Source: Escherichia phage vB_EcoM_phAPEC6. From it: a stretch of 64,000 nt of DNA. Positions 3,008-63,937 of this stretch are shown here, one piece after another (positions within the stretch are counted from its first letter, which is position 1; every line of letters starts with the position of its first letter). The notes beneath the pieces were generated by a model. The model had not been told where the DNA came from. It worked only from the letters and a program-made list of their open reading frames with translations, and did not search any database. The position numbers and the translations under genes are program-made. The stretch lies in the sequence record MK817115.1; one strand, 5' to 3'.

Positions 3008-3592
3008 CTATTTCAGTACTTTAGTCAATGCTTTCACAGCGGTTTCGAGTTGAGCATAGTCGTTAATTGTAAGGTAATGAATACCATGTGCATTCATTTC
3101 AGCATCTATTTTATTATATAAATCAAACATGTCAAGGATATGATTGTATGCATATGAAGTATTTGAAACACACAATTCTTGGAACAAACGTTCTTCCAAG
3201 TCATTCACAACTTCTCCATGAATATCAAGTACTACACCATCTTTGTAAGTGTAGTACTCTTCACTCCACTCTTCAGAAAGTCGGAACAGTAACGGATTCC
3301 CGCCGAACACTTCCATGTCATAGGAATTTATCTCACTAAGTAGTGTTTCACCTGGTTCTGGTGTGAAGTCAAAATATGCGAGTGTTGTACCATCATAGTC
3401 CTTGAGTGATATACCAGTATGATTTAAGGTTACTTCACCATAATTATTATTCTTGAACTTGATTTTGATATTAATCTCAATGTATTTTATTGTCTCATCA
3501 TCACTGAAATTGTAATCAATTTTATACTTTTTCCAAAGAAGTTTGATATCTTTGAAGTACTTTAATTTACTTTCAATTTCTTTAAAGTCCAT
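3008..3592 (-). CDS. family A-like paralog
   Basis: ORF track 194 aa; motif EERLFQELCVSN. Confidence 0.6.
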   Translation of the reverse strand: MDFKEIESKLKYFKDIKLLWKKYKIDYNFSDDETIKYIEINIKIKFKNNNYGEVTLNHTGISLKDYDGTTLAYFDFTPEPGETLLSEINSYDMEVFGGNPLLFRLSEEWSEEYYTYKDGVVLDIHGEVVNDLEERLFQELCVSNTSYAYNHILDMFDLYNKIDAEMNAHGIHYLTINDYAQLETAVKALTKVLK

Positions 3593-7442: not shown

Positions 7443-8017
7443 TGTGCATCCTCGAATTTAACAGGTACATGTTCATTAATGAAATTCTTAAGAGCCTGTA
7501 CTAAATCCTCTAATTCTTTTGTACTGTATTTTAAAATAGTTTTAAAGTGAATCAAATCTTTTCTTTCCATGATCTTTGGAATTTTATATGCTAACTCTAA
7601 ACAGCGTACAGTACTGGCATCATACAAAAGGTTTGCGTTGAACATTAGAACATTGTATTCATCAGATGAAATTTTATAATTATATGTATCAATCACTTCA
7701 TGTGTGTATAAATTCTTATACACAATTTTATTCTCACTGAAGTTTGAGCAAACACACAGATGATCGTTGTAAAATGAAGAACGATAATCTTGTTTACGTT
7801 GTACATCTGCTATGATTTGTAATACTGTATATTTTTCTTCAGAATCCAACTCAATGTTAGCATAACTGCTCGCAGTTTCAGATACAAGGATATTGATGTT
7901 ATATTTCTCATTAACTTTAATGTACTGGCGTGAGCCAGTATCAGGAATGAACTTAAAACAATGCTTCAGAAGTAATGTGACTTCTTTAATTAATTCAGTA
8001 CTCATAGATTCCTCCAA
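7439..8017 (-). CDS. family A-like paralog (divergent)
   Basis: ORF track 192 aa; degenerate motif NVLMFNANLLYD. Confidence 0.55.
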   Translation of the reverse strand: MEESMSTELIKEVTLLLKHCFKFIPDTGSRQYIKVNEKYNINILVSETASSYANIELDSEEKYTVLQIIADVQRKQDYRSSFYNDHLCVCSNFSENKIVYKNLYTHEVIDTYNYKISSDEYNVLMFNANLLYDASTVRCLELAYKIPKIMERKDLIHFKTILKYSTKELEDLVQALKNFINEHVPVKFEDAQ

Positions 8018-8071
8018 CTCTAGTTAAAATCAAGTATAACACACCTGAATGCTCTTGTAAAGCCATAAACA

Positions 8072-8092
8072 CAAAAAGACCCATACGGGTCT
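8072..8092 (-). terminator. intrinsic terminator
   Basis: hairpin AGACCC-atac-GGGTCT directly after stop of 8093..8659, followed by T-run on minus strand (A-run 8072-8076 on plus); T-run also on plus side. Confidence 0.5.
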
Positions 8093-11873: not shown

Positions 11874-11932
11874 TGTGTTATAACCCTTTACAATTAATAT
11901 AAAGGGATTATATCACAAAAAATCGGTGGGTG

Positions 11933-13531: not shown

Positions 13532-14134
13532 TTATACCTCAGTATATAGCTTACAATAGCTTTCATCGAAATTACAAACACTTCTCAAGTACTGACACAG
13601 GTCATTGAAAATATTTACATTTGATATATATACATTATCAAATTCTGTTCGTTGAAAGAATGTATACATAGAATTTGTAATATATCGCATTGCATCTTCA
13701 CGTCCCATAGTTATATCATTTGTGAACATTGCATCTTCATCAGTACTGATGTGTTCTATTTTAAATGATTTCATAAATGGAATACTCTTTCCTAGGGCAT
13801 AACCATCACCATATGATGCTTCTACTGCACCTTTGGAATAAAGGAATTGATATAAGTCCGAATCACGATTATAAAAAGTACGACATACGGAGGAACATAA
13901 TTTATTATCTATATGAAATAAAAATCTTTTAGCATTTTTGTCTAATACTATTCGCAATGCATCACTCTCTAGAAATATATCACCATCAAGCATAAATGAG
14001 AACTGTACTAATGCTTTTTCTAAATCCGCTCGTTTGTGATAAATCATTTCCTGCATATATATAATATCATTTGCTAATTTCTTAAAAAACAAATGCACAT
14101 CTGCACTACAACATTTATTTGCATTTATTGACAT
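13532..14134 (-). CDS. hypothetical protein, possibly divergent family A
   Basis: ORF track 200 aa; weak motif EDAMFTNDITMG. Confidence 0.55.
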   Translation of the reverse strand: MSINANKCCSADVHLFFKKLANDIIYMQEMIYHKRADLEKALVQFSFMLDGDIFLESDALRIVLDKNAKRFLFHIDNKLCSSVCRTFYNRDSDLYQFLYSKGAVEASYGDGYALGKSIPFMKSFKIEHISTDEDAMFTNDITMGREDAMRYITNSMYTFFQRTEFDNVYISNVNIFNDLCQYLRSVCNFDESYCKLYTEV

Positions 14135-14866: not shown

Positions 14867-15062
14867 TAACCCTCTTCTGTATTAGTTCCTGTAAGTGCTG
14901 AATATAACCCTTCATTGCAACATCCTGTTTGTTAGAGCCAACGAAGAACAAGAGCTTAAAGTCATGGTAATCCATTTTTGGTTTAGTAGTGAACCATATG
15001 TCCCACACTGCACTCACAGTTCTCATGTATTCAATTCGATTAAATGTTTTTGAATACTTCAT
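14844..15062 (-). CDS. family B-like paralog
   Basis: ORF track 72 aa; motif FVGSNKQDVAMKGYIQHL. Confidence 0.5.
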   Translation of the reverse strand: MKYSKTFNRIEYMRTVSAVWDIWFTTKPKMDYHDFKLLFFVGSNKQDVAMKGYIQHLQELIQKRVNENNRPR

Positions 15063-15576
15063 CGATGTTCATTGCCAATAAGTTAATATACAAATTACTG
15101 TTAAATGCTATCTGCAATTCCATATAGAACTGAATGATTGCATAGTCAGGGTCAGTACACGATAGTTGAAAACACTGTTCGTCGAATGCATTGTAATTGT
15201 ACTTAGGGATGTGAATTTCACGCTTCAAATCAGGTTGCCCCCACTTCATCGCGTACACACCAATGTTATTGTTCTTTTTCCTTTTCTTAAATGTTAATTG
15301 TTGAATATTTCCTGCGTTATCCAGGAAAATAGAATTATTCGACACAGGTGCACCAATAGAAAACAATGATGTATCAATTACGTGTTTCTCACGTACATCA
15401 CACTTCTGAAATGCACCTGTACCCTGTAATACACGATGAAAATTGTACTTCTCATTAACAACAGTACTAGGATCAATTAAACCAGTACTGCATTTTTTGA
15501 GTACTGGTACGATGATACGAATCTTTTTTGATAAATCTTGTAATGCATCAAAGTCATTGATGTTAACTTTCATCAC
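15040..15576 (-). CDS. family A-like paralog
   Basis: ORF track 178 aa; motif DEQCFQLSCTDP. Confidence 0.65.
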   Translation of the reverse strand: MMKVNINDFDALQDLSKKIRIIVPVLKKCSTGLIDPSTVVNEKYNFHRVLQGTGAFQKCDVREKHVIDTSLFSIGAPVSNNSIFLDNAGNIQQLTFKKRKKNNNIGVYAMKWGQPDLKREIHIPKYNYNAFDEQCFQLSCTDPDYAIIQFYMELQIAFNSNLYINLLAMNIDEVFKNI

Positions 15577-16022
15577 TCAAATGTGGCCTCTTCAGTAGTA
15601 ACAAAATTGATTAGTGTATCCAGTTCAGCAGTGTCAAGATAAAATACATCCAGTACTGATTTCTGATATATTACACTGAATGTGCATAGATTGTCAAGCG
15701 TTCCTTGTTCATAAACAGTACTACCCTGGAAGTACCCTTCTTCAGTACTCAGGGATAAAATGTCTGAAATTTTAAAAGATTCTTCAGTCGCATGTCTTTC
15801 TATATTAACTAAATGTCCGTTTCGGTTCAATGAAATATAATCGTATGCTAACTCAATTAGACTATAATTATCCGCATTAGTGTCAAATAAAGCGACAATT
15901 TTTCGTCTCAATCTCTCATCGTGATCATGGTTTTCATCAGCTAAGTATTCAGGATTTTCTTTGAAGAACTTAACAACTTTTAGAATATCATTTGCTTTCT
16001 TGATTGCACTTTCGTAACTCAT
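15573..16022 (-). CDS. family A paralog
   Basis: ORF track 149 aa; motif EEGYFQGSTVYE. Confidence 0.7.
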   Translation of the reverse strand: MSYESAIKKANDILKVVKFFKENPEYLADENHDHDERLRRKIVALFDTNADNYSLIELAYDYISLNRNGHLVNIERHATEESFKISDILSLSTEEGYFQGSTVYEQGTLDNLCTFSVIYQKSVLDVFYLDTAELDTLINFVTTEEATFE

Positions 16023-16327: not shown

Positions 16328-16641
16328 TATATTTCTATCTCAATGTAATCCTGTGTGATTAAGTAATCCCAATGATACTTCACCTGCTTTTGTAATTCAA
16401 TTAACGTAAAGAAGTTGATCGATTTATCCCATACGAGCGATTCCTGGAAAATAAATGATTCATGTTCATCGTAATAATCACACTCTAAAAAATCAGGTAT
16501 ATATTCACTATCGTGAATGTATTCAACAAACGAACTAGCTTGGCATTTCTTTACTACTAGTAATAATGAATTATCATGATCAAACAGATACAATAAACTA
16601 ATTTCACCAGGGACGTACTGAACACTGAATAAGTTTTTCAT
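16327..16641 (-). CDS. family A paralog
   Basis: ORF track 104 aa; motif ESFIFQESLVWD. Confidence 0.7.
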   Translation of the reverse strand: MKNLFSVQYVPGEISLLYLFDHDNSLLLVVKKCQASSFVEYIHDSEYIPDFLECDYYDEHESFIFQESLVWDKSINFFTLIELQKQVKYHWDYLITQDYIEIEI

Positions 16642-17090
16642 TCTATACCTTCTGGATCTTTACGAAGTTCTTCGAAATCCAAATAAAATCGAGGACAGTT
16701 AACACTCTTTAAATACCACATAATAACTAATGCTTCAAGTACTTCATCATCGTAAACAGTACTGTTTTGGAAGTAATACTCTTCACTATCCCACGGACCA
16801 TCCAGTACTTCATAATTCAAAATTAATGGTTTTTTGCGATTAATAAAACGAATGCTACCATTTTCAACATAACTAATAAATTCTGCATCTCTATTGTATT
16901 CAGAAAACGATATAGGACTATTGGAATTCAACCCAAGAATAACCCTTACACCAACGGAGTTATTATACATTTCATCTTTGTAGTAGTTGCCGTTCTCGGC
17001 TTTGTACACTTCTTTGAACTTTCCTGCCTTTATATCGTCAAAGTATCCATGTAGTTCTTTTGCTTTTTCAAGAGCACTTTGTAATGACAT
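16638..17090 (-). CDS. family A paralog, MSLQSALEKAK subfamily
   Basis: ORF track 150 aa; N-term MSLQSALEKAK, motif GPWDSEEYYFQNSTVYD. Confidence 0.75.
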   Translation of the reverse strand: MSLQSALEKAKELHGYFDDIKAGKFKEVYKAENGNYYKDEMYNNSVGVRVILGLNSNSPISFSEYNRDAEFISYVENGSIRFINRKKPLILNYEVLDGPWDSEEYYFQNSTVYDDEVLEALVIMWYLKSVNCPRFYLDFEELRKDPEGIE

Positions 17091-17556
17091 TACCTTCTCC
17101 TACAGTATTCTCTACATATTCATAATCAAAATAGAAACTACTGGAGTCAATACTTTTGAAATACCACATAATCACAATAACATCCAGTTCTTCTTCATTG
17201 TACAACGTACTATTCTGGAAGTAATACTCTTCACTATCCCACGGACCTTCTAGTACTGAATAAGGAATGATAGTGTCATCAGCATCACTATCTGTGTTGT
17301 AGATGGTAATATCTTCATTACGGCAATAACTAATGTACTGATTGTACATATGATATTCACAGTTATCACTGTCACCAGTATCAGTGTGCAGTACTAATGT
17401 TTCTGCACATATCTCGGACTCGTCATAATCGTCACGGTCTTTTACAAAAAATTCAGTATCAGATGTTTTATATACACCTGGAACTGAACCTTCTTGTACC
17501 ATAATCATATACTCATGAATCTTCTTTGCTTCTTTCAATGCACTTTGTAACGACAT
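17068..17556 (-). CDS. family A paralog, MSLQSALEKAK subfamily
   Basis: ORF track 162 aa; N-term MSLQSALKEAK, motif GPWDSEEYYFQNSTLYN. Confidence 0.75.
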   Translation of the reverse strand: MSLQSALKEAKKIHEYMIMVQEGSVPGVYKTSDTEFFVKDRDDYDESEICAETLVLHTDTGDSDNCEYHMYNQYISYCRNEDITIYNTDSDADDTIIPYSVLEGPWDSEEYYFQNSTLYNEEELDVIVIMWYFKSIDSSSFYFDYEYVENTVGEGNVITKCS

Positions 17557-17999
17557 TACAAATCCCCTGAACTTAAATATTCACATGCTCCCCAGTCAAG
17601 AAAGAATGGTTCAAAATTCAATTCCTTAAAGTACCACAACACAACCAAGGAATCAAGCATTTCTTGGTTAAAAATGAAACTCTGTTGGAAGTAATACTCT
17701 TCAGTACCCCACGGGCCATCAAGTACCCCGAAGTCAACAGGTGCATTTGATGTGTCAAACGTAATCTTAGTACCTGGAATATATACAAAAAAACTAGTAT
17801 ATTGACTACATGAAGAGTACTGTATAGTATTGTCTTTATCCTGTCCCATAAGTAAAATATCATCAGAGTATGTCTTTATACCTGATAGATAATACTCATC
17901 ACCAAATGCACTTACTTTATCACCATAGAACCCACTTTTTATGTTATCGTGGAAGTGATGTATTCTGTGTGCTAGTTCAAGTGCACTTGCTAAACTCAT
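17556..17999 (-). CDS. family A paralog, MSLQSALEKAK subfamily
   Basis: ORF track 147 aa; N-term MSLASALELAH, motif GPWGTEEYYFQQSFIFN. Confidence 0.75.
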   Translation of the reverse strand: MSLASALELAHRIHHFHDNIKSGFYGDKVSAFGDEYYLSGIKTYSDDILLMGQDKDNTIQYSSCSQYTSFFVYIPGTKITFDTSNAPVDFGVLDGPWGTEEYYFQQSFIFNQEMLDSLVVLWYFKELNFEPFFLDWGACEYLSSGDL

Positions 18000-18466
18000 A
18001 TATCCTCTTTAATAACTCGTAGTAGATCCAAGTCCAAATAGAAGCTAGGACAATCTGTATTATTAAAGTACCACAGAATGACAAGCTTGTCAAGTACATC
18101 TTCCTCGTAGATAGTATTCTGCTGGAAGTAGTACTCTTCACTTCCCCAGTCATTATCCAGTACTGAATACGGAAGATGTTTCTCTGCTGCACCAGATATA
18201 ATGTCAGAATCTTGTATTAAAATATCAGCATCACGACAGAAGTACATGTAATTATCTTCCAAATTAACATCACACCCATTGAGTGTTGTTTCAGAAGAAT
18301 CTAAGTTTTCTTCATACATGTGAATGTACTCACTACTGTCATCGTATCTCATTCGACAATAAGATTTACCTTCCTTGAATAGATATCCATTGAGACAATT
18401 TGCTACAATTTCTTTGCTGCATAAATCAATTAACTTCGCAATCTCTAATGCTCTTTCTAAACTCAT
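17996..18466 (-). CDS. family A paralog, MSLQSALEKAK subfamily
   Basis: ORF track 156 aa; N-term MSLERALEIAK, motif NDWGSEEYYFQQNTIYE. Confidence 0.75.
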   Translation of the reverse strand: MSLERALEIAKLIDLCSKEIVANCLNGYLFKEGKSYCRMRYDDSSEYIHMYEENLDSSETTLNGCDVNLEDNYMYFCRDADILIQDSDIISGAAEKHLPYSVLDNDWGSEEYYFQQNTIYEEDVLDKLVILWYFNNTDCPSFYLDLDLLRVIKEDI

Positions 18467-18467
18467 T

Positions 18468-18959
18468 TTAACCCCTGTTAATACCGTTATCTACAGTTTT
18501 CTTTACGTATTTGTAATCGAAATAGAAGTTCCCAGAACCAATACTTTTAAAGTACCACATAATTATAATAACATCAAGTACTTCATTATCGTATACAGTA
18601 CTTTGTTGGAAGTAATACTCTTCACTATCCCACGGACCTTCCAGTACTTCACTCGGAATTATAATGTCATCGGAATCGCTATCAGTACTGTAGATGGTAT
18701 CTGTATCATTAATATAGACCATGTACTCATTATGCATATTAATGAAGCATTCATAATCATTAGGGTCGGTATCCAGTACACACGTTTCTGTATCCAGTAC
18801 GCACGTTTCTGTATCTGAGCAGTCATTATAAAGGAGGTTATCCGGTACATAATATTGAGTACTTGTGTCTTTGAAAACACCGTAAACTGAACCTTCTTTT
18901 GCCATATTCATGTACTCATGAATCTTCTTTGCTTTTTCCAATGAACTCTGTAATGTCAT
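18468..18959 (-). CDS. family A paralog, MSLQSALEKAK subfamily
   Basis: ORF track 163 aa; N-term MTLQSSLEKAK, motif GPWDSEEYYFQQSTVYD; contains in-frame 21-nt tandem duplication (ETCVLDT x2). Confidence 0.75.
   Translation of the reverse strand: MTLQSSLEKAKKIHEYMNMAKEGSVYGVFKDTSTQYYVPDNLLYNDCSDTETCVLDTETCVLDTDPNDYECFINMHNEYMVYINDTDTIYSTDSDSDDIIIPSEVLEGPWDSEEYYFQQSTVYDNEVLDVIIIMWYFKSIGSGNFYFDYKYVKKTVDNGINRG
18771..18812 (-). repeat. 21-bp perfect-frame tandem duplication inside CDS
   Basis: gtatccagtacacacgtttct / gtatccagtacgcacgtttct adjacent copies; encodes ETCVLDT twice. Confidence 0.7.
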
Positions 18960-18968
18960 TTTATAATC

Positions 18969-19328
18969 TCATATATTGAAATAATAATTATTCGTTCTTG
19001 ATGGGGATGGATTAAATACGTTTTCTTTTTCAAATCTCTTCATTTCATTTTGCAAAGAAACCATTTCTTCAAATGTACAGGAGTACTTATTCTTATCAAA
19101 CACTAATGCAGCCTGAAATAGTTCACCATCGTCCAGTACTGTATAATCTATAAGACTCTCAGATTCATAGTCATAGTCGTCATGTGATACATGAATAAAT
19201 TTAAAACAAGAATCTTTGTAATGCATATATAAACTCAACTCATGTTCCGAGTCGCCCTTAATAAGATTACAGCACAAGTCCCATCCTTTAGGTAACTTAT
19301 AATAGTACATAGAATAATCATATGTCAT
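18969..19328 (-). CDS. family A paralog
   Basis: ORF track 119 aa; motif DDGELFQAALVFDKNKYSCTFEEM. Confidence 0.7.
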   Translation of the reverse strand: MTYDYSMYYYKLPKGWDLCCNLIKGDSEHELSLYMHYKDSCFKFIHVSHDDYDYESESLIDYTVLDDGELFQAALVFDKNKYSCTFEEMVSLQNEMKRFEKENVFNPSPSRTNNYYFNI

Positions 19329-19681
19329 TCTTGAATTCCTAAATTGAATTTGTATTCTTGATTAATACTTGCATTGGGTTTATGCAAAGCAGCATACTCT
19401 TTCATTTCATTTTGTATTGCAATAACTTCTTCAAATGTACACAAGTACTTCTTATCAAATACTAATGATTCTTGGAATAGTTCTGCGGTATCCATTAATG
19501 TATAGTCCGGCATATCTTGGTGTGGATACTGTAATGAACTGTAATCAATGAATGTAAATTTACCCTGAGTGTAATGAATATACTCATTTGCACTGTGCAT
19601 TAAATCACCTTTGTTTAAATTACAAAAGTACTGATAACTGTGCTTGAAAGTATGTACTGATATTAAAAAATCAAATTCCAT
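19325..19681 (-). CDS. family A paralog
   Basis: ORF track 118 aa; motif DTAELFQESLVFDKKYLCTFEEV. Confidence 0.7.
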   Translation of the reverse strand: MEFDFLISVHTFKHSYQYFCNLNKGDLMHSANEYIHYTQGKFTFIDYSSLQYPHQDMPDYTLMDTAELFQESLVFDKKYLCTFEEVIAIQNEMKEYAALHKPNASINQEYKFNLGIQE

Positions 19682-20052
19682 CAGTACTCAACCTCTACAT
19701 AAATAGATTCAGGAAACTTAGTCATATAATCTTCTGGATAGTTCTGCATTACTTTGATCATTTCTGCCTGTGTAGCACGGACGTATTCAATTGGTGCTCC
19801 TGGTAAATTCCAGACAGTACTTTCCTGAAAGAATTCCTCTTCTGACAGTACTGTCAGATTTACAAAATCATTACGGTAATTTTTTGAATCATCATATGTG
19901 AAGATTTTAAAAGACCCATTTTCATATAGTACAAGAACAAAATGGGAGAATTTTTGTAATGCACCACCAAGGCTTTCCACGACCGCATGATTCAGTGTAC
20001 AGATGACCTCTTTTTTCCTCATACCGAATTGAATTCTAATTTCTTTTTTCAT
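19681..20052 (-). CDS. family A paralog
   Basis: ORF track 123 aa; motif EEEFFQESTVWN. Confidence 0.7.
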   Translation of the reverse strand: MKKEIRIQFGMRKKEVICTLNHAVVESLGGALQKFSHFVLVLYENGSFKIFTYDDSKNYRNDFVNLTVLSEEEFFQESTVWNLPGAPIEYVRATQAEMIKVMQNYPEDYMTKFPESIYVEVEY

Positions 20053-20210
20053 AAAATCTCCTTCAGATTAGTACTGAATTTGTACAGAATATTAGAACTG
20101 TATACAGCCTCTGTATCTGTATCCATAATCAAATCACCTTTGTTTAAATTACAAAAGTACTGATAACTGTGCTTAAAAGAATGTACTGATATTAAAAAAT
20201 CAAATTCCAT
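20049..20210 (-). pseudogene. truncated duplicate of the 5' end of gene 19325..19681 (family A remnant)
   Basis: approx. 80 bp at 20132-20211 nearly identical to 19603-19682 including start codon; resulting 53-aa ORF begins MEFDFLISVHSFKHSYQYFCNLNKGDL then diverges. Confidence 0.4.
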
Positions 20211-20587
20211 CACTCTTCCCCTAGATTGAAATGATTACAAAAATCATCTTCACCAGTACTGCACCAGATATCTATACATTCCCTGTGAATACATTTAATT
20301 CTACGCTGTAATTCAATCATCTCTTCTAATGTACAGATGTACTTCTTATCAAATACTAATGCCGCCTGAAACAGTGCAGCATCATCAAGTACTGTATAGT
20401 CCAACATCTCGGTTGCTTTACCCCTAAACCCAGTACTAAAATCCATCAAATAAAAGTCAGCATTCCAGTACTTTAAAATCTTGTCCCTAGCGTAGTTTAA
20501 ATCACCCTTGTATAAGTTAGAGTGCGTAACTAACTCACCAGTGTACATCCATGTCCTTGCACAAAATTCATTATATTTTATTTCCAT
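20210..20587 (-). CDS. family A paralog
   Basis: ORF track 20210..20695; motif DDAALFQAALVFDKKYICTLEEM; start moved to internal Met MEIKYNEF because upstream extension reads through intergenic sequence. Confidence 0.6.
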   Translation of the reverse strand: MEIKYNEFCARTWMYTGELVTHSNLYKGDLNYARDKILKYWNADFYLMDFSTGFRGKATEMLDYTVLDDAALFQAALVFDKKYICTLEEMIELQRRIKCIHRECIDIWCSTGEDDFCNHFNLGEE

Positions 20588-20783
20588 CTTAATCTCTACT
20601 ATAATTAATAAGGTAAACTCCAATATAAGGAGCACGTTGCGGGGGCGGGGTATTTTTTGTTTCAGGAAACATGAACTGTACTCTGAAAAACACAATATAA
20701 AACTTTATATTAAACATATACCTTAGCATGTTTTTCAGCGGAAATTTTTTTGACCCCCTGCGGCCTGTCAAAACGAAACGTCT

Positions 20784-21380: not shown

Positions 21381-22004
21381 TCATACATTAACAACTTTAT
21401 CGATGTAATCTTCTAACATATCAATATATCTGGTATTGGTTCTAACTAAAAGGTATGCAAATCCAGAGAACTCCTGTGTATAATGCTTTACAGCGTACAT
21501 ACAACGAAGCTTATCATTGTCATACATTGTACTGTACTGAAACAAACTCTCGTCTGATAGCTCTAATAACGCTTGGGCTTCACTTCTCGTGAACTTCATA
21601 GGGTCATGTACTGCATCACAAAAACAAACCTGTGTCTCGCTATTGAAACCCTGTGATAGATATATACCTTCACACTCTGAACGCACCGATACTGCATTAT
21701 AACTATGTGTTGCCCCCATCATATCTGAACTCAAAACTAAAATCAACCCATTTTTATTTTTAATCAACAAATCTGACTTAAGGGATTTGATCTCCGTATG
21801 GGAAATATCACCAAATCTTCCTGGGACTTCAAACTTATCAACGTTGTATACAATCTTTTGTACTTGCTCTTTTAAACGCTTAATTGCACTTCTGTCTTTT
21901 TCTAATGTATCTAATAAACTCATTGAACTCATTGTACTTTCCTTACATATTTGTACCGAACAAAACGGAACTGCGAACGTCATTGATCGACAATTCATGT
22001 ACAT
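21381..22004 (-). CDS. family A paralog
   Basis: ORF track 207 aa; motif DESLFQYSTMYD; true start may be internal. Confidence 0.65.
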   Translation of the reverse strand: MYMNCRSMTFAVPFCSVQICKESTMSSMSLLDTLEKDRSAIKRLKEQVQKIVYNVDKFEVPGRFGDISHTEIKSLKSDLLIKNKNGLILVLSSDMMGATHSYNAVSVRSECEGIYLSQGFNSETQVCFCDAVHDPMKFTRSEAQALLELSDESLFQYSTMYDNDKLRCMYAVKHYTQEFSGFAYLLVRTNTRYIDMLEDYIDKVVNV

Positions 22005-22284
22005 ATATATTTTGTCTGAACAAAGGAACTAATTGAACTAAACTTTGTTGCATAACAATATGCATATGTAAATTGTCATATGCCGTTTCGTATTGGAAAC
22101 GTGCTGCTTCATCTTCTATGAAATTAGGAACTTGGACTGGATTTTCAAAATTTGTTCTTGAACTGAACTGCACATCATTATCCTGTACTTTAATACCATA
22201 TGCATTATCATCATCATATACATCTAATTCAATTAAACTACCATCACTTTTTATGTTTACCACACAAACCGAAAATCGACTCAT
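21943..22284 (-). CDS. family A-like paralog
   Basis: ORF track 113 aa; motif EAARFQYETAYD. Confidence 0.55.
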   Translation of the reverse strand: MSRFSVCVVNIKSDGSLIELDVYDDDNAYGIKVQDNDVQFSSRTNFENPVQVPNFIEDEAARFQYETAYDNLHMHIVMQQSLVQLVPLFRQNIYVHELSINDVRSSVLFGTNM

Positions 22285-39458: not shown

Positions 39459-40043
39459 TTATCGTGTTATAGTTACGGCTTTTACATCACGCTTTTTATA
39501 GTACTGATTCCAGATATTGCGGGTTAAACCGTAATCAAGTACTTTAATAAGTCCATTACGATCCTGGCCGATATTCTGTTTTCTGATATCTCTTATCGTT
39601 AGTGTTGATAATGTATCATCGACGTGTTGTAGTGCATCAGCAAAGCGGTGCTGGCGTTCAATGGCATTACGTTTAATATTGTACTTTAATTCGTTGCACG
39701 CGTTAACGTGCTTCACACTGCCTTTACTTGCAGTACTCAACCGATCCATAACGATAAACATATTATCAGGATCGCATAAATGCATATGCACCTTTGCAAA
39801 GTACTGTTTCAATTGAGGGCGGTCATAGTCTAAAAAATTCCATACCTTACATTCAGTTTCATTTTGTTCTACACCCGCATCACAATTGGCGACCTTAATC
39901 ACTAACCGATCATTTAAAGCGAATACGATACGGGAAGAACCCGCCCCGATGATCTCCAGGCCAGCTAACCGACAAGCTGAAAGGATCTCTTTGTTGGTTT
40001 CCATTTCTGACAGTGTACGGATGAATTTAGTATAATTACGCAT
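39459..40043 (-). CDS. putative Ser/Thr protein kinase-like protein
   Basis: ORF track 39459..40100, start moved to Met behind SD AAGGAG; Gly-rich loop IGAGSSRIVF, VIKV lysine, catalytic-loop-like RDIRKQNIG, DYG (DFG-like) motif. Confidence 0.5.
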   Translation of the reverse strand: MRNYTKFIRTLSEMETNKEILSACRLAGLEIIGAGSSRIVFALNDRLVIKVANCDAGVEQNETECKVWNFLDYDRPQLKQYFAKVHMHLCDPDNMFIVMDRLSTASKGSVKHVNACNELKYNIKRNAIERQHRFADALQHVDDTLSTLTIRDIRKQNIGQDRNGLIKVLDYGLTRNIWNQYYKKRDVKAVTITR

Positions 40044-40074
40044 TGCATGTTCTCCTTGAGTTAATGAAACTATC

Positions 40075-40317
40075 TTACAGTACTTTACTATCAATGGCAA
40101 CCACTTTTTTCACACTAACCGCGTGAATCACTTCCTTAGTGTTTTTAGTACTGAATACTTTCGCTGTTCCTTGTTCTACTGCAATGCGATAACGACCGTT
40201 AACATCAACCATATTAATAAAGTCCGGTGTACTAAACCGAGTAGTACGGCATTTCAGTACTGTTAACAATTCCACCAGCGATGTAGTTTCTTTGATACGT
40301 TTTTCTAAAGTAATCAT
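40075..40317 (-). CDS. hypothetical protein (80 aa)
   Basis: ORF track; promoter TTGACA-N17-TACTAT upstream. Confidence 0.6.
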   Translation of the reverse strand: MITLEKRIKETTSLVELLTVLKCRTTRFSTPDFINMVDVNGRYRIAVEQGTAKVFSTKNTKEVIHAVSVKKVVAIDSKVL

Positions 40318-60310: not shown

Positions 60311-60358
60311 GGGTTTTCTTTATGGGGTAAATATGATATAATGAATAAGGAGGGATTT

Positions 60359-61507
60359 ATGTTACCTTTTGCAAGAATGATTAAGTACGGGAATATTGCC
60401 CCTGGTGATGATGGACGTTTTAAAATATATTCCAGTGATTCCATGTATCTTCATGATACTTATACTGATAAGTTGTATGCATCTTCTGCGACGAATTGGG
60501 GTACTGGTACAGGTGTAGCATCGAGTAAATTTATTCTTTGTGCGGAGAATGTTAAACGAGTTCTATTGGAAGATAACAGTAGTGATTGTCAATTGTACGA
60601 AGAGAAAGGTACGGGAAAAGTTTTTATCACTGGCAACACGAAGGCATTCACTGGTGTAACTGATAGAAAAACTTTGTGGACGGACTGTACTACATGGATA
60701 ACATCAGGTGGTATTAATGTTTCTGATATAAAATACATGAGTAGTTTTTATGATATGAAGGTGAATTTGATAACAAACGATGGTACATTGTATTGTTGTG
60801 GAGCTAACAATATATCGAACATATCATCATTTGGTGATGGCACAAACATTAATTCTTTTAACACATTCAAAAGAGTAGATACTATAACTTCGGTTAAAAA
60901 GGCAGTTGGTAACATTTATTTGCGAGAAGATAATACTTTATGGGGTTGTGGTTTTAACTATTACTACCAGTTGGGTACGGGTAATCAAACTTCTATTACT
61001 GGGGTGACGATGATTTCTTCGGATGTTATAGATTTTAATGTAAGTTATCAGAGTACATTTTTTATCAAATCGGATAATAATTTGTACGCTTGTGGTAAAC
61101 AGTTCGGTGCACAATATGGGAACGAATTTGGTACAGGTGGTACTTCTACATCTACAGATATACAATATAAAACTCCGACATTATTGAGTTCAGGAGTTTA
61201 TACTCTATATACTTGTGTTGGTAACATGGCATCACATATTGTCAAAGCAGATGAAGTTCTATATGCTTCTGGAACGAATGGGTTTGGGCAATTAGGTGTT
61301 GGTAATAATAATAATCAGTACTCCTATACTCCTTCTTATACTTCTTTTAATAGTTCGTGTGATTTGGTACGCAGTCCATCTGGATCACTTATACTTACGG
61401 ATACTGGAAAATTATATTATTGTGGCATTGCAATAGTAGTAATGGGTGGTATTTCTGGACAGAACGTTCTTAATTATACAGAAGTAGATATGTCATTTAT
61501 ACAATGA
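60359..61507 (+). CDS. RCC1-like repeat (beta-propeller) protein, paralog 1
   Basis: ORF track 60341..61507, start set to MLPFARMIKYGN Met behind SD AAGGAGGG; repeats with G.N..GQLG.G signature (WGCGFNYYYQLGTGN, GTNGFGQLGVGN). Confidence 0.6.
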   Translation: MLPFARMIKYGNIAPGDDGRFKIYSSDSMYLHDTYTDKLYASSATNWGTGTGVASSKFILCAENVKRVLLEDNSSDCQLYEEKGTGKVFITGNTKAFTGVTDRKTLWTDCTTWITSGGINVSDIKYMSSFYDMKVNLITNDGTLYCCGANNISNISSFGDGTNINSFNTFKRVDTITSVKKAVGNIYLREDNTLWGCGFNYYYQLGTGNQTSITGVTMISSDVIDFNVSYQSTFFIKSDNNLYACGKQFGAQYGNEFGTGGTSTSTDIQYKTPTLLSSGVYTLYTCVGNMASHIVKADEVLYASGTNGFGQLGVGNNNNQYSYTPSYTSFNSSCDLVRSPSGSLILTDTGKLYYCGIAIVVMGGISGQNVLNYTEVDMSFIQ

Positions 61508-61515
61508 ATTAATAT

Positions 61516-61545
61516 GCCAGTACTTGATACTGGCTTTTCTTTTTG
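61516..61545 (+). terminator. intrinsic terminator
   Basis: hairpin GCCAGTA-cttga-TACTGGC followed by TTTTCTTTTTGT. Confidence 0.6.
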
Positions 61546-61579
61546 TATTAAATATAGTATAATGAATAAAGGAGGAATT

Positions 61580-62722
61580 ATGTTACCTTTTGCAAGAATG
61601 GTTAAGTACGGGAATATTGCACCTGCACAAATCGGTAGATATAAAATATACAGTTCATCTTCTTCACTATTTTTATTGGATACCCAAAAACACAATTTGT
61701 ACAGTACATCGAACATTAATTATACTAGTGGTACAGGTAATGTTGAGCCTAAATTTGTGTTAAGTGCAACTAATGTTAAAAGATTATTACTATCTGATAA
61801 TAGTTGTGCAATGCAAATATATGAAGATATGAATGGGCGTGCAGCGATGTGTGGCACAAGAACTGCATATAGTGGGGTTGCAAATGATAATGTACTGGTA
61901 TGGACGGATTGCACTACATGGTTCACAAATGTAGGGTTGAATGTATCAGATATTCAGTACATGTCTGGTTTTTATAATCTGAAACTAAACATAGTTATGA
62001 ATAATGGTGATTTGTGGTGTAGTGGGAAAAACAACACTACTACTATGTCATCATTTGGTAATAGCACAAATATCGATTCATTCAATCAGTTTACCAAAAT
62101 AACAACAATATCAAATGTTATTAAAGCCACCGGGAATATATACTTATGTGCAGATAATACTTTATGGGGATGTGGTTTTAACTCTTACTATCAGTTAGGG
62201 ACAGGTAATCAAACATCCAGTATTAATTTGATTATGATGGCTTCTAATGTTATCGACTGTAATGTTGGTCTTCAAAATACTTATTACTTGACTAATAATA
62301 AAGAACTTTATGGATGTGGTACACAATTTGGTACAACTTACGGGAATGAATTTGGAACAGGAAGGCAGGGAACATCAATACAATATAAGACTCCTACTAT
62401 AATTTTCACAAATGCAGATGGTCTGGCTGTTTGTGTCGGTAATATGTCTACTCATGTTATTCAATATGATAAAGTTTTTAGTTCTGGTAATAATGCCCTT
62501 GCACAGTTGGGTGTAGGCAACCGTGACAATGTGTACACATATACACAATCATTTGATAATTTCAAAATGGATTCTTCTATAGTACGTGCAAACGTTGGAA
62601 CATTGATAATGACAGCGGACAATAAGTTATATTACAGTGGGAGAAATGATGTTGTTATGGGTGGAACAAGCACACAATACACGACGGTTTTCAGTGAAGT
62701 TAATATGTCATTTATACAATGA
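61580..62722 (+). CDS. RCC1-like repeat (beta-propeller) protein, paralog 2
   Basis: ORF track 61514..62722, start set to MLPFARMVKYGN behind SD AAAGGAGG; motifs WGCGFNSYYQLGTGN, NALAQLGVGN. Confidence 0.6.
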   Translation: MLPFARMVKYGNIAPAQIGRYKIYSSSSSLFLLDTQKHNLYSTSNINYTSGTGNVEPKFVLSATNVKRLLLSDNSCAMQIYEDMNGRAAMCGTRTAYSGVANDNVLVWTDCTTWFTNVGLNVSDIQYMSGFYNLKLNIVMNNGDLWCSGKNNTTTMSSFGNSTNIDSFNQFTKITTISNVIKATGNIYLCADNTLWGCGFNSYYQLGTGNQTSSINLIMMASNVIDCNVGLQNTYYLTNNKELYGCGTQFGTTYGNEFGTGRQGTSIQYKTPTIIFTNADGLAVCVGNMSTHVIQYDKVFSSGNNALAQLGVGNRDNVYTYTQSFDNFKMDSSIVRANVGTLIMTADNKLYYSGRNDVVMGGTSTQYTTVFSEVNMSFIQ

Positions 62723-62728
62723 ATTAAT

Positions 62729-62758
62729 GCCAGTACTTGATACTGGCTTTTCTTTTTT
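62729..62758 (+). terminator. intrinsic terminator
   Basis: same hairpin GCCAGTA-cttga-TACTGGC + T-run. Confidence 0.6.
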
Positions 62759-62794
62759 GTATTAAATATAGTATAATGAATAAAGGAGGGAATT

Positions 62795-63937
62795 ATGTTA
62801 CCTTTTGCAAGAATGGTTAAGTACGGAAATGAAGCACCAGAACCAAAACCTCTATTTAAAAATAGATTACAAGCAAATTATAATACTCGTTTTTATTTGC
62901 ATGTTAATGGTGACTTGTACTGGTATGGTTCATCTTCATTTGGACAAGGTGGTAATGGTTCATTACAATCATCCACCGTATGGACCCGTGTGAATAATAA
63001 TATTGAACGTTACTGGGGTGGTGTTCTTGGTTCCATTGCCATTAAGAATGATGGAACTATTTGGTTCACAGGTGCTAGTATAGTAATGCCACAAATCGGA
63101 ACAAATACAAATGGGGTTTGGATTGATGTAACCCAGTACTTCACTGATTTTGGTGTCAGTGCTGATGATATTGATGGTATTGCTGTTGGACAGAATTTGC
63201 GTGTATTTTTGAAAAATGGAAAATGGTTCTACTGTGGTGCTGGCGAGGGTGGTGTATTTGGTAACGCATCAACAGCTAATGTCACATCGTTCAGATACAG
63301 CACTATAGAAAATGTTAAAAGTTATGGCTGTTCTTTGCTCAGTACTGGGTTAGTTCTTGATGATGGTTCCTATTGGTATGCAGGAAATACTGTTGCTCCT
63401 GGTAGTACAACAACATCAAATATATTAAGTTTTACAAAAGACAATACGATCACCAATGCTATACAAGCTGTAAATACATACCGTACTTCATATATATTTC
63501 TTAATGATGGTTCAGTGAAGGTTGCTTCACCAAATGCATATGGTCAAGCTGGTGTAGGTAGAGTATCAGCAGTACCAATGAGTACATTAATTCCCAATTT
63601 ATCATTCCAAGGTGAAATAGAGTTGGTGGGTGGTTTATCCAACAACGAAGGGAATGGATGTGTTGTTAAAAATAATAATAAGTTATATACTTGTGGTCGA
63701 AATACCTATGGTGCATGTGGTGTTAATCAAACATCCGAAAATATACTAACTTTCACCGAAATGGTTCTTGATGCATTAGAAGGAAGACGAATTTCAGGCT
63801 TCGTAATTGATAATTTCTATTCAATGATAATTGATGAAAATAACAATTTGTATATGAGTGGTTTGGCTGAACTTGGAAATGTTCCAGCCGTGAGAGTTCC
63901 AACCAGAGTCCCCGATTCCCTTCTACCGTGGAAATAA
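62795..63937 (+). CDS. RCC1-like repeat (beta-propeller) protein, paralog 3 (more divergent)
   Basis: ORF track 380 aa; N-term MLPFARMVKYGN; motifs SSFGQGGNG, NAYGQAGVGR, NTYGACGVN. Confidence 0.6.
   Translation: MLPFARMVKYGNEAPEPKPLFKNRLQANYNTRFYLHVNGDLYWYGSSSFGQGGNGSLQSSTVWTRVNNNIERYWGGVLGSIAIKNDGTIWFTGASIVMPQIGTNTNGVWIDVTQYFTDFGVSADDIDGIAVGQNLRVFLKNGKWFYCGAGEGGVFGNASTANVTSFRYSTIENVKSYGCSLLSTGLVLDDGSYWYAGNTVAPGSTTTSNILSFTKDNTITNAIQAVNTYRTSYIFLNDGSVKVASPNAYGQAGVGRVSAVPMSTLIPNLSFQGEIELVGGLSNNEGNGCVVKNNNKLYTCGRNTYGACGVNQTSENILTFTEMVLDALEGRRISGFVIDNFYSMIIDENNNLYMSGLAELGNVPAVRVPTRVPDSLLPWK

Follow-up and report, generated by a model that had tools for sequence, protein, structure and literature searches.

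Comparative sequence analysis points to an old, diverged five-gene subfamily within a large paralogue array of an Asteriusvirus jumbo phage

Introduction

In a 64,000-nucleotide stretch of the genome of Escherichia phage vB_EcoM_phAPEC6 (sequence record MK817115.1; this whole stretch is called the window below), five consecutive genes, A1 to A5, lie within a long array of paralogues that we refer to as family A (Table 1). A sequence-only reading had described these genes as highly similar copies that arose by a recent tandem amplification and are still expanding by local duplication. An amplification in progress would have shown phage genome growth as it happens, but it is not supported by the data. 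Comparison with related phages indicates instead that the block is a subfamily of old, diverged copies that are stably inherited, and that its amplification is neither recent nor continuing.

Results

Five closely packed genes for acidic proteins

The five open reading frames (ORFs) are consecutive and lie on the minus strand at exactly the coordinates first assigned to them, with transcription running from A5 to A1. One junction between the genes is a 1-nt gap and the others are overlaps of 1, 4, and 23 nt, the longest of which joins the end of A2 to the start of A1; a Shine-Dalgarno-like sequence precedes every one of the genes. The products are the most acidic members of family A, with net charges of -10 to -26 and pI values of 4.05-4.66. 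The N terminus that they had been said to share is borne out (MSLQSALEKAK in A1, MSLQSALKEAK in A2, MSLASALELAH in A3, MSLERALEIAK in A4, and MTLQSSLEKAK in A5), as is a common C-terminal block, which reads GPWDSEEYYFQ..S..Y, WYFK, and FY[FL]D across the five proteins.

The window derives from a PBECO4/121Q-like E. coli jumbo phage (Asteriusvirus) with a genome of ~350 kb. PBECO4 and 121Q are, respectively, 99.5% and 94% identical to the 16.0-19.5 kb stretch of the window, which is matched by 33 phage records, all from ~350-kb coliphages or Salmonella phages that belong to Asteriusvirus or are close to it. For positions 1-25000 the best match is vB_EcoM_G17 (98.7%), and over the array region the window is 94-97% identical to 121Q.

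Table 1. Positions of the five genes and of associated features in the window
Feature	Position	Strand	Description
A5	18468-18959	minus	163 aa; pI 4.05; first transcribed copy; phrog_9317, E 3e-65
A4	17996-18466	minus	156 aa; pI 4.10; phrog_9317, E 6e-59
A3	17556-17999	minus	147 aa; pI 4.25; phrog_9317, E 3e-55
A2	17068-17556	minus	162 aa; pI 4.05; phrog_9317, E 9e-66
A1	16638-17090	minus	150 aa; pI 4.66; phrog_9317, E 5e-60; last copy; the structure-modeled one
Paralogue B	15573-16022	minus	149 aa; phrog_12674, E 2e-53; phrog_9317, E 3e-11
Family A array	733-29408	minus	iterative hidden Markov model (HMM) search of window ORFs converged on 40 members
Identical 32-35 nt encoding GPWDSEEYYFQ	A1 16767-16799; A2 17216-17250; A5 18606-18641	minus	longest exact matches between copies
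In-frame 21-nt tandem duplication in A5 (LDTETCV twice)	18769-18815	minus	Tandem Repeats Finder: period 21, 2.2 copies, 96% matches
Nearest upstream sigma-70-like promoter candidate, TTGACA-16-AAAAAT	20744-20771	minus	promoter scan; weak; inside 54-nt gap 20730-20783

The five copies form a clade and differ most in their central region

Similarity among the copies extends beyond the short motif near their C termini. Pairwise BLASTP comparisons of A1-A5 give E values of 1e-16 to 2e-59 with full-length alignment in most pairs, all five proteins match the same PHROGs v4 family, phrog_9317, over profile positions 1 to 155-158 of 160 (E 3e-55 to 9e-66), and a repeat finder detects five 152-nt DNA copies with a period of 437-484 nt that are 64-75% identical to the reference copy. 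The similarity is nevertheless concentrated at both ends of the proteins: identity is 48% over the N-terminal 22 residues and 56% over residues 93-140, as against 19% over the central 70 residues. With global protein identities of 30-43%, reaching 60% only for the non-adjacent pair A2/A5, and this low value in the center, calling the copies highly similar was an overstatement. Codon-aligned nucleotide identity is correspondingly 48-57% (71% for A2/A5), and the best A2/A5 nucleotide stretches are 77-79% identical over 115-218 nt.

The five genes are, as had been proposed, closer to one another than to the rest of family A. Over HMM-aligned positions, the five share a mean identity of 36% (29-57%) among themselves and 17% with the remaining 35 paralogues of the window, and a Poisson-corrected neighbor-joining tree recovers them as monophyletic in 226 of 300 bootstraps, with A2 and A5 together in 297/300. 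Paralogue B, which is the closest family member by profile match and is 24-34% identical to A1-A5, joins them in 26/300 bootstraps and so falls outside the clade.

The copies appear to predate the divergence of the sampled Asteriusvirus phages

Between copies, synonymous divergence (dS, Nei-Gojobori) is 1.07 for A2/A5 and, for all other pairs, either exceeds 1.2 or could not be computed. This saturation contrasts with orthologues in 121Q, UE-S1, fEgEco12, TH47, and phage A4 (a relative, distinct from the gene A4), which differ from the window by a dS of 0.05-0.7, with ratios of nonsynonymous to synonymous divergence (dN/dS) of 0.05-0.7. The exception is a diverged A2-like gene of phage A4 (dS 1.04, 61% identical), the orthology of which is uncertain. 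Nearly every copy has 69-98% identical orthologues in these five relatives, compared with 30-60% identity between the paralogues of the window, and in 121Q and UE-S1 there is one orthologue per copy, in conserved order and 80-98% identical. By gene, orthologues of A1 reach 92-93% identity in 121Q and UE-S1, against 69-71% in fEgEco12 and TH47; those of A2 are 91-98% identical, with a dN/dS of 0.05-0.12; those of A3 are 80-95% identical, the exact A3 protein being found also in PBECO4 and Salmonella phage SD-1_S14; those of gene A4 are 84-92% identical in five phages; and those of A5 are 96%, 91%, and 78% identical in 121Q, UE-S1, and phage A4, with none in fEgEco12 or TH47. The distant phage Turkey5 carries a 58% identical A4-like gene plus more diverged members.

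Copy number tells the same story. Eighteen records match the 16.0-19.5 kb stretch at 94% identity or more, and in each of them it measures 3,480-3,504 bases against 3,501 bases in the query, so that copy number is unchanged among them; elsewhere, differences take the form of replacement or loss, with no added copies. An origin by local tandem duplication fits genes that lie side by side in colinear order, form one clade, and fall into a single PHROG, and this part of the earlier description stands, while the adjective "recent" is at odds with paralogue dS values of 1.07 or more and "still expanding" with the constant copy number. Because paralogue dS is saturated, orthologues are one-to-one, copy number is constant, and Turkey5 has an A4-like gene, we infer that the block already existed before the sampled Asteriusvirus phages radiated and that its copies have been kept individually by purifying selection.

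We weighed this against a tandem amplification that is recent and still growing by local duplication, in the manner of the "genomic accordion" of phages and poxviruses under selection. Adjacency, colinearity, and monophyly would be expected of it as well, traces of duplication do occur nearby (a polymorphic 21-nt repeat in A5 and an 85-nt, 96% direct repeat, both described below), and the process is documented for T-even anti-defense loci (PMC9391042, PMC13096335). It is nonetheless extremely unlikely here: nucleotide identities are low even for the best pair, each copy has its own orthologue in phages at a dS of up to 0.7, gene count is the same in the 18 close genomes, copy-number differences are replacements or losses rather than gains, and the most similar pair, A2/A5, are not neighbors.

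Records of the Salmonella "SD" phages align to the window in many pieces. In SD-1_S14, the A5 orthologue is split into ORFs of 101 and 30 aa (positions 3132-3532 of that record), through either assembly error or decay. Split or frameshifted genes in CMSTMSU and the Salmonella "SD" phages were considered as pseudogenes and set aside, as these records look like low-quality assemblies.

The block is part of an array shared by RaK2-like jumbo phages

The five genes make up their own clade among at least 40 paralogues of family A, across which mean identity is ~16-17%. All 40 window members, A1-A5 included, share the motif [ST]-E-E-x-x-F-Q-x-S-[LT]-[VI]-x-[DN]. Three further ORFs of the array that the HMM search missed (15040-15576, 21943-22284, and 13532-14134, minus strand) contain, by eye, the motif-like strings DEQCFQLSCTD and DEAARFQYETAYD and the degenerate DEDAMFTNDIT, respectively; given these strings, the family in the window probably has more than 40 members. 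In PHROGs, neighboring paralogues fall into phrog_12674, phrog_13866, phrog_15629, and phrog_30243, with weaker cross-matches between them. PHROGs lists these four and phrog_9317 as separate families annotated "unknown function"; here they are joined into one superfamily by the motif and the iterative HMM search.

The array occupies one strand between a region of tiny ORFs and genes for methylase and nucleotide metabolism, with flanks checked in G17. No family member was found in the window at 29.4-64 kb, nor in the 50 kb beyond the window start in G17, a stretch that holds genes for methylase, RNA ligase, polynucleotide kinase, DNA ligase, ClpP, PhoH, and NrdD/G.

Beyond the window, the family is rare. 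A profile built from A1-A5 and paralogue B found only 61 proteins among 5.8 billion, and a 40-paralogue profile, searched exhaustively against 1.84 billion cluster representatives, gave 157 matches with E up to 0.001, in nearly all of which the motif is present. Among the newly retrieved library matches, 144 were inspected, and 112 of these fit the strict motif pattern, most of the others carrying a variant recognizable by eye. In 10 sampled clusters, named members were all Asteriusvirus or ~350-kb contigs filed under E. coli, the single exception being a fragment of 70 residues listed as Actinomadura adrarensis; metagenome contigs alone make up four of the 10 clusters. A search of complete E. 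coli genomes gave no family match. A motif-based scan of viral contigs recovered Klebsiella phage RaK2 and Serratia phage BF, with at least 25 motif-bearing members in the former (ORF378-439) and at least two in the latter. In RaK2, the members lie downstream of a tiny-ORF region and upstream of a dam methylase gene, the same layout as in the window; the RaK2 paper states that ~10% of RaK2 products are paralogues. These comparisons indicate that E. coli and Klebsiella jumbo phages alike have retained the family as a syntenic array.

The array appears to change by exchange, loss, and short-patch recombination

Several relatives differ from the window within the block itself. Four copies are present in fEgEco12 and TH47, in which the place of A5 is taken by two ORFs, one of 62 aa and the other a short-type family member of 114 aa, and phage A4 lacks A1. 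Divergence is mosaic along the block: for A3, dS to the window rises from fEgEco12 (0.115) through 121Q (0.175) to UE-S1 (0.567), whereas A1 shows the opposite pattern and is closest to 121Q. On a larger scale, positions 1-25000 of the window are covered to at least 80% in one piece by only 7 of 35 phage records. Two A5-type proteins of other phages, P0007 and P0008 (phage A4 being among their sources), open with an A2-type N terminus, MSLESALKEAKK, which indicates that they are chimeras between paralogues.

A different trace of exchange is found at the motif. A1, A2, and A5 share the identical stretch of 32-35 nt listed in Table 1, while their synonymous sites outside this patch are saturated, and at the motif all five genes use almost identical synonymous codons (AGT GAA GAG TAT TAC TTC), which the 40-paralogue set does not. 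Selection at the nucleotide level acting on the motif across the whole family was considered and ruled out, as motif codons vary freely over the 40 paralogues (TTT/TTC 22:18, CAA/CAG 15:25); the identical stretch is therefore specific to this subgroup. It suggests short-patch gene conversion or recombination.

Such exchange could in principle have produced the clade itself. Under concerted evolution, gene conversion between neighbors would homogenize the gene ends, so that the grouping of the five genes and the pairing of A2 with A5 would reflect recombination, and the copies might be older still. The shared patch, the nearly common codons of the five genes, the A2-type N terminus on some A5 orthologues, and an identity that is high only at the gene ends all agree with this. 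The best A2/A5 stretches, on the other hand, are too diverged for recent long-tract conversion, and a common length, N-terminal helix, and strong acidity fit common descent. We regard concerted evolution as an unlikely, though serious, account of the clade, and retain descent from old tandem duplications.

Traces of recent duplication near the block are only small. The 21-nt repeat of A5 lies in a variable part of the protein and is polymorphic, with two copies in the window and 121Q and one in UE-S1 and phage A4. Outside the five genes, just upstream of the block, an 85-nt direct repeat (19599-19683 and 20128-20212; 82/85 identical, 96%) flanks an inserted gene (19681-20052); its second copy heads a truncated 54-aa ORF (20049-20213) that repeats the first 28 codons of gene 19325-19681, and UE-S1, which lacks the insertion, has a 243-aa fused ORF instead. 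No fresh duplication of the five genes was seen among the relatives compared. From the four-copy relatives, the mosaic divergence, the chimeras, the shared patch, and the small size of the duplications, there is thus a strong case that the array is remodeled mainly by cassette exchange, replacement, and loss between phages, with occasional short-patch recombination between paralogues.

Predicted structures combine a variable sheet with conserved helices

The AlphaFold2 model of A1, built on an alignment of 62 sequences, has a mean pLDDT of 90.3 and a pTM of 0.85. It consists of a helix at residues 3-21, seven strands within residues 28-91, helices at 93-97, 103-109 (which carries the E-E-Y-Y-F-Q motif), and 115-129, and a final strand. 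A model of the short-type member encoded at 19325-19681 (pLDDT 86.2) has the same core without the N-terminal helix, and after the motif both models end in a helix-helix-strand arrangement. The N terminus of the proteins looks unremarkable and amphipathic. The models thus predict a sequence-variable antiparallel beta-sheet packed on conserved C-terminal helices, to which the five genes would add a conserved N-terminal helix.

Comparison of the models with folds in the PDB returned no convincing neighbor, and a Foldseek search of viral models returned only uncharacterized proteins of 121Q, SP27, RaK2, GAP32, Yersinia phage fHe-Yen9-04, and Serratia phage BF. The p32/gC1qBP/Mam33 fold and polo-box domains bear a weak structural resemblance, limited in the models to an antiparallel sheet packed by terminal helices. 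The p32 fold has one N-terminal helix, seven antiparallel strands, and C-terminal helices, and in this it resembles the A1 model; p32/Mam33 proteins are also strongly acidic, like A1-A5. Provisionally, the models may represent a new fold.

The first conserved C-terminal helix bears the invariant F-Q and the nearly invariant E-E. These residues might be read as the mark of an enzyme family, for instance of metal-dependent nucleases or hydrolases with an active site made up of the E-E pair and the Gln and with paralogues that differ in substrate, since the nearly invariant positions are polar or acidic (E, E, Q) or F and cluster on one helix. We find this highly improbable: no enzyme family is matched in Pfam or among PDB sequences, the secondary structure of the model suggests that [ST]-E-E may be a helix cap and that F-Q may pack in the core, and forty paralogous enzymes in one phage would be unusual. 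The string E-x-x-Y-F-Q-[GS] was also considered as a TEV/3C protease site and rejected: the motif is part of a predicted helix, and the position following Q is variable (N, Q, G, Y, E, L, M).

Promoter context and virion proteomes

A5-A1 have no promoter of their own. From the candidate upstream of the block (Table 1), the gene run continues to ~11.9 kb, all further gaps as far as position 11932 being shorter than 45 nt. Near-consensus sigma-70 sites on the coding strand lie mostly between genes (25 of 35, in the intergenic 16% of the sequence), several of them inside the array; they are very dense at 35-56 kb and sparser in the array. These phages encode a sigma factor and no RNA polymerase of their own (PMC11895373).

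Two further regions of the minus strand have a distinctive promoter content. At 35000-56000, among tiny ORFs, nearly every intergenic gap holds a near-consensus sigma-70 promoter, many of the extended form TTGACA-N-AGTACTGTATAAT and others of a second repeated type, TTGACTCCGGTCAGTCCCTTTGCTATTAT; the region looks like a dense immediate-early promoter field. It also contains a 213-aa TTG-start ORF (39459-40100, minus strand) with a weak protein-kinase-like Pfam match (E 0.003, under the curated cut-off). Within the array, the intergenic gap at 8006-8092 holds a hairpin and T-run (GACCCGTATGGGTCTTTTT) followed by a TTTACA...TATACT promoter-like site and looks like a terminator-promoter boundary that would split the array into transcription units.

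In the RaK2 virion proteome (Table S3 of that study), no product falls between gp275 and gp493, a range that includes the family (ORF378-439), and in the phAPEC6 virion proteome (Table 1 of PMC7247149) none falls between gp347 and gp549. By our own mapping of gene numbers, the window corresponds to approximately gp408-551 of phAPEC6, through three anchors: PhoH as gp341c, the lone plus-strand gene G17_00454 as gp347, and the 41.23-kDa RCC1-like product of 62795-63937 as gp551. This last is the third of three consecutive RCC1-repeat genes on the plus strand at 60341-63937 (388, 402, and 380 aa), its mass being that of virion gp551; the three begin an eleven-gene array of RCC1-like "DNA condensation proteins" in phAPEC6.

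These proteomes bear on whether family A proteins are packaged components of the virion, such as parts of a phiKZ-like inner body. Other jumbo phages have small head proteins that form paralogous families, and the phiKZ inner body is itself built from one, which would favor such a role. Bubbling of the inner-body type is a pattern reported for 121Q and phAPEC6 (PMC5646251, PMC7247149), and a few family members lie near the masses of small unnamed phAPEC6 virion proteins, a coincidence expected by chance. We set this mass matching aside: among 40 proteins spread over 12-23 kDa, close agreement is common by chance alone, and to accept the two best pairings would mean that gp306c and gp347 are encoded five genes apart on one strand. 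With 0 of 54 RaK2 virion proteins within ORF378-439, 0 of 62 phAPEC6 virion proteins in the range that covers the array by our mapping, and the array set amid early-type promoters and beside nucleotide-metabolism genes rather than head genes, a virion role is very unlikely. From the absence of the family in virion proteomes, the sigma-70-type promoters, and the presence of a phage sigma factor without a phage RNA polymerase, our best guess is that the five proteins are early, non-structural, cytoplasmic, acidic host-interaction proteins.

Discussion

The array has been noticed before: in one sentence on 121Q, Hua et al. (2017, mBio; PMC5646251) mention an array that they read as a product of tandem duplication. 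It is very probably the family A array, as the window is 94-97% identical to 121Q and the family corresponds to approximately 121Q genes 356-403 and beyond. That report gives no gene list, motif, subfamilies, dating, structure, or function, and the genes described here, with their low mean identity, are not "very similar". In the literature, we found no functional study of the family and no description of its motif, subfamilies, age, or structure.

Comparable expansions are known in other phages. Tandem accessory genes of large lytic phages also occur in the genomic accordions formed by anti-defense genes of T4 and T6, and an amplification of this type is a plausible first origin of the array. 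Accordion copies (PMC9391042, PMC13096335) are near-identical, unstable, and variable in number, whereas A1-A5 are 30-60% identical, saturated in dS, and fixed one-to-one. The ~35-copy zinc-ribbon expansion of Bacillus phage G (PMC7824862) is likewise a large, clustered, phage-specific paralogue family without an assigned role, and the eleven RCC1-like genes of phAPEC6 itself (PMC7247149) are likewise a clustered paralogue expansion in a jumbo phage. Both of these families use known domains, unlike family A, which has no Pfam domain or convincing structural neighbor.

Our overall reading, to which we assign a probability of about 60%, is that A1-A5 are an old tandem subfamily (phrog_9317) within an array of at least 40 members that is remodeled by cassettes and that may serve as an early, diversified host-interaction arsenal. 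Local duplication very probably built the block before the sampled Asteriusvirus phages diverged, and each copy has since been kept as a separate gene by purifying selection. Host RNA polymerase would transcribe the genes early, in a long polycistronic run. In the proteins, the conserved helices may hold the fold together and the divergent sheet may provide paralogue-specific binding to a host protein or host defense protein, making the array a diversified arsenal for host takeover or counter-defense, much as multigene families may be viewed in large eukaryotic DNA viruses. We consider this mode of action, from early transcription and fold-holding helices to sheet-based specificity and an arsenal, to have slightly less than an even chance of being right.

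A number of points weigh against this reading. The tree and the dS values come from neighbor-joining and Nei-Gojobori, simple methods applied to very divergent sequences. No experiment or annotated homologue stands behind any function: Pfam gave no match for A1-A5 and no consistent match for family A, a profile search of PDB sequences gave none, and PADLOC gave scattered single matches with no consistent one, its catalogue covering defense systems and not anti-defense. Purifying selection on each copy (dN/dS below 1) is unlike the single-residue signature of an arms race. The early timing is drawn from consensus matches alone, and a generic promoter scan over 14-23 kb gives 50 sites as against 49 in shuffled sequence, with no enrichment. 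Absence from the virion proteomes leaves room for low-abundance packaged proteins, and for phAPEC6 it depends on our own gene-number mapping.

A bolder analogy, which we put forward tentatively and think somewhat doubtful, is with the multigene families of poxviruses and African swine fever virus. The array might be their phage counterpart: one new fold giving rise to dozens of early binders, each neutralizing a different host factor or defense. RaK2-like phages that infect Escherichia, Klebsiella, and Serratia would have kept it and would trade its genes in cassettes, and the variable halves might be swapped with the aid of recombination at the conserved patch that encodes the motif.

The interest of the locus is greater for the family than for the claim first made about the five genes. 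About 8% of a 350-kb genome (~29 kb) consists of one superfamily without a Pfam match or a close solved structure, the members of which were not detected in virions and are probably expressed early, judging from promoter-like sequences. The array is a clearly delimited set of candidate host-interaction genes that lends itself to experiments, and within it the five acidic copies form a compact block. Its history fits the view that jumbo phage genomes have grown in part by tandem duplications of long ago, the products of which then diverged (Hua et al., 2017; PMC5646251).

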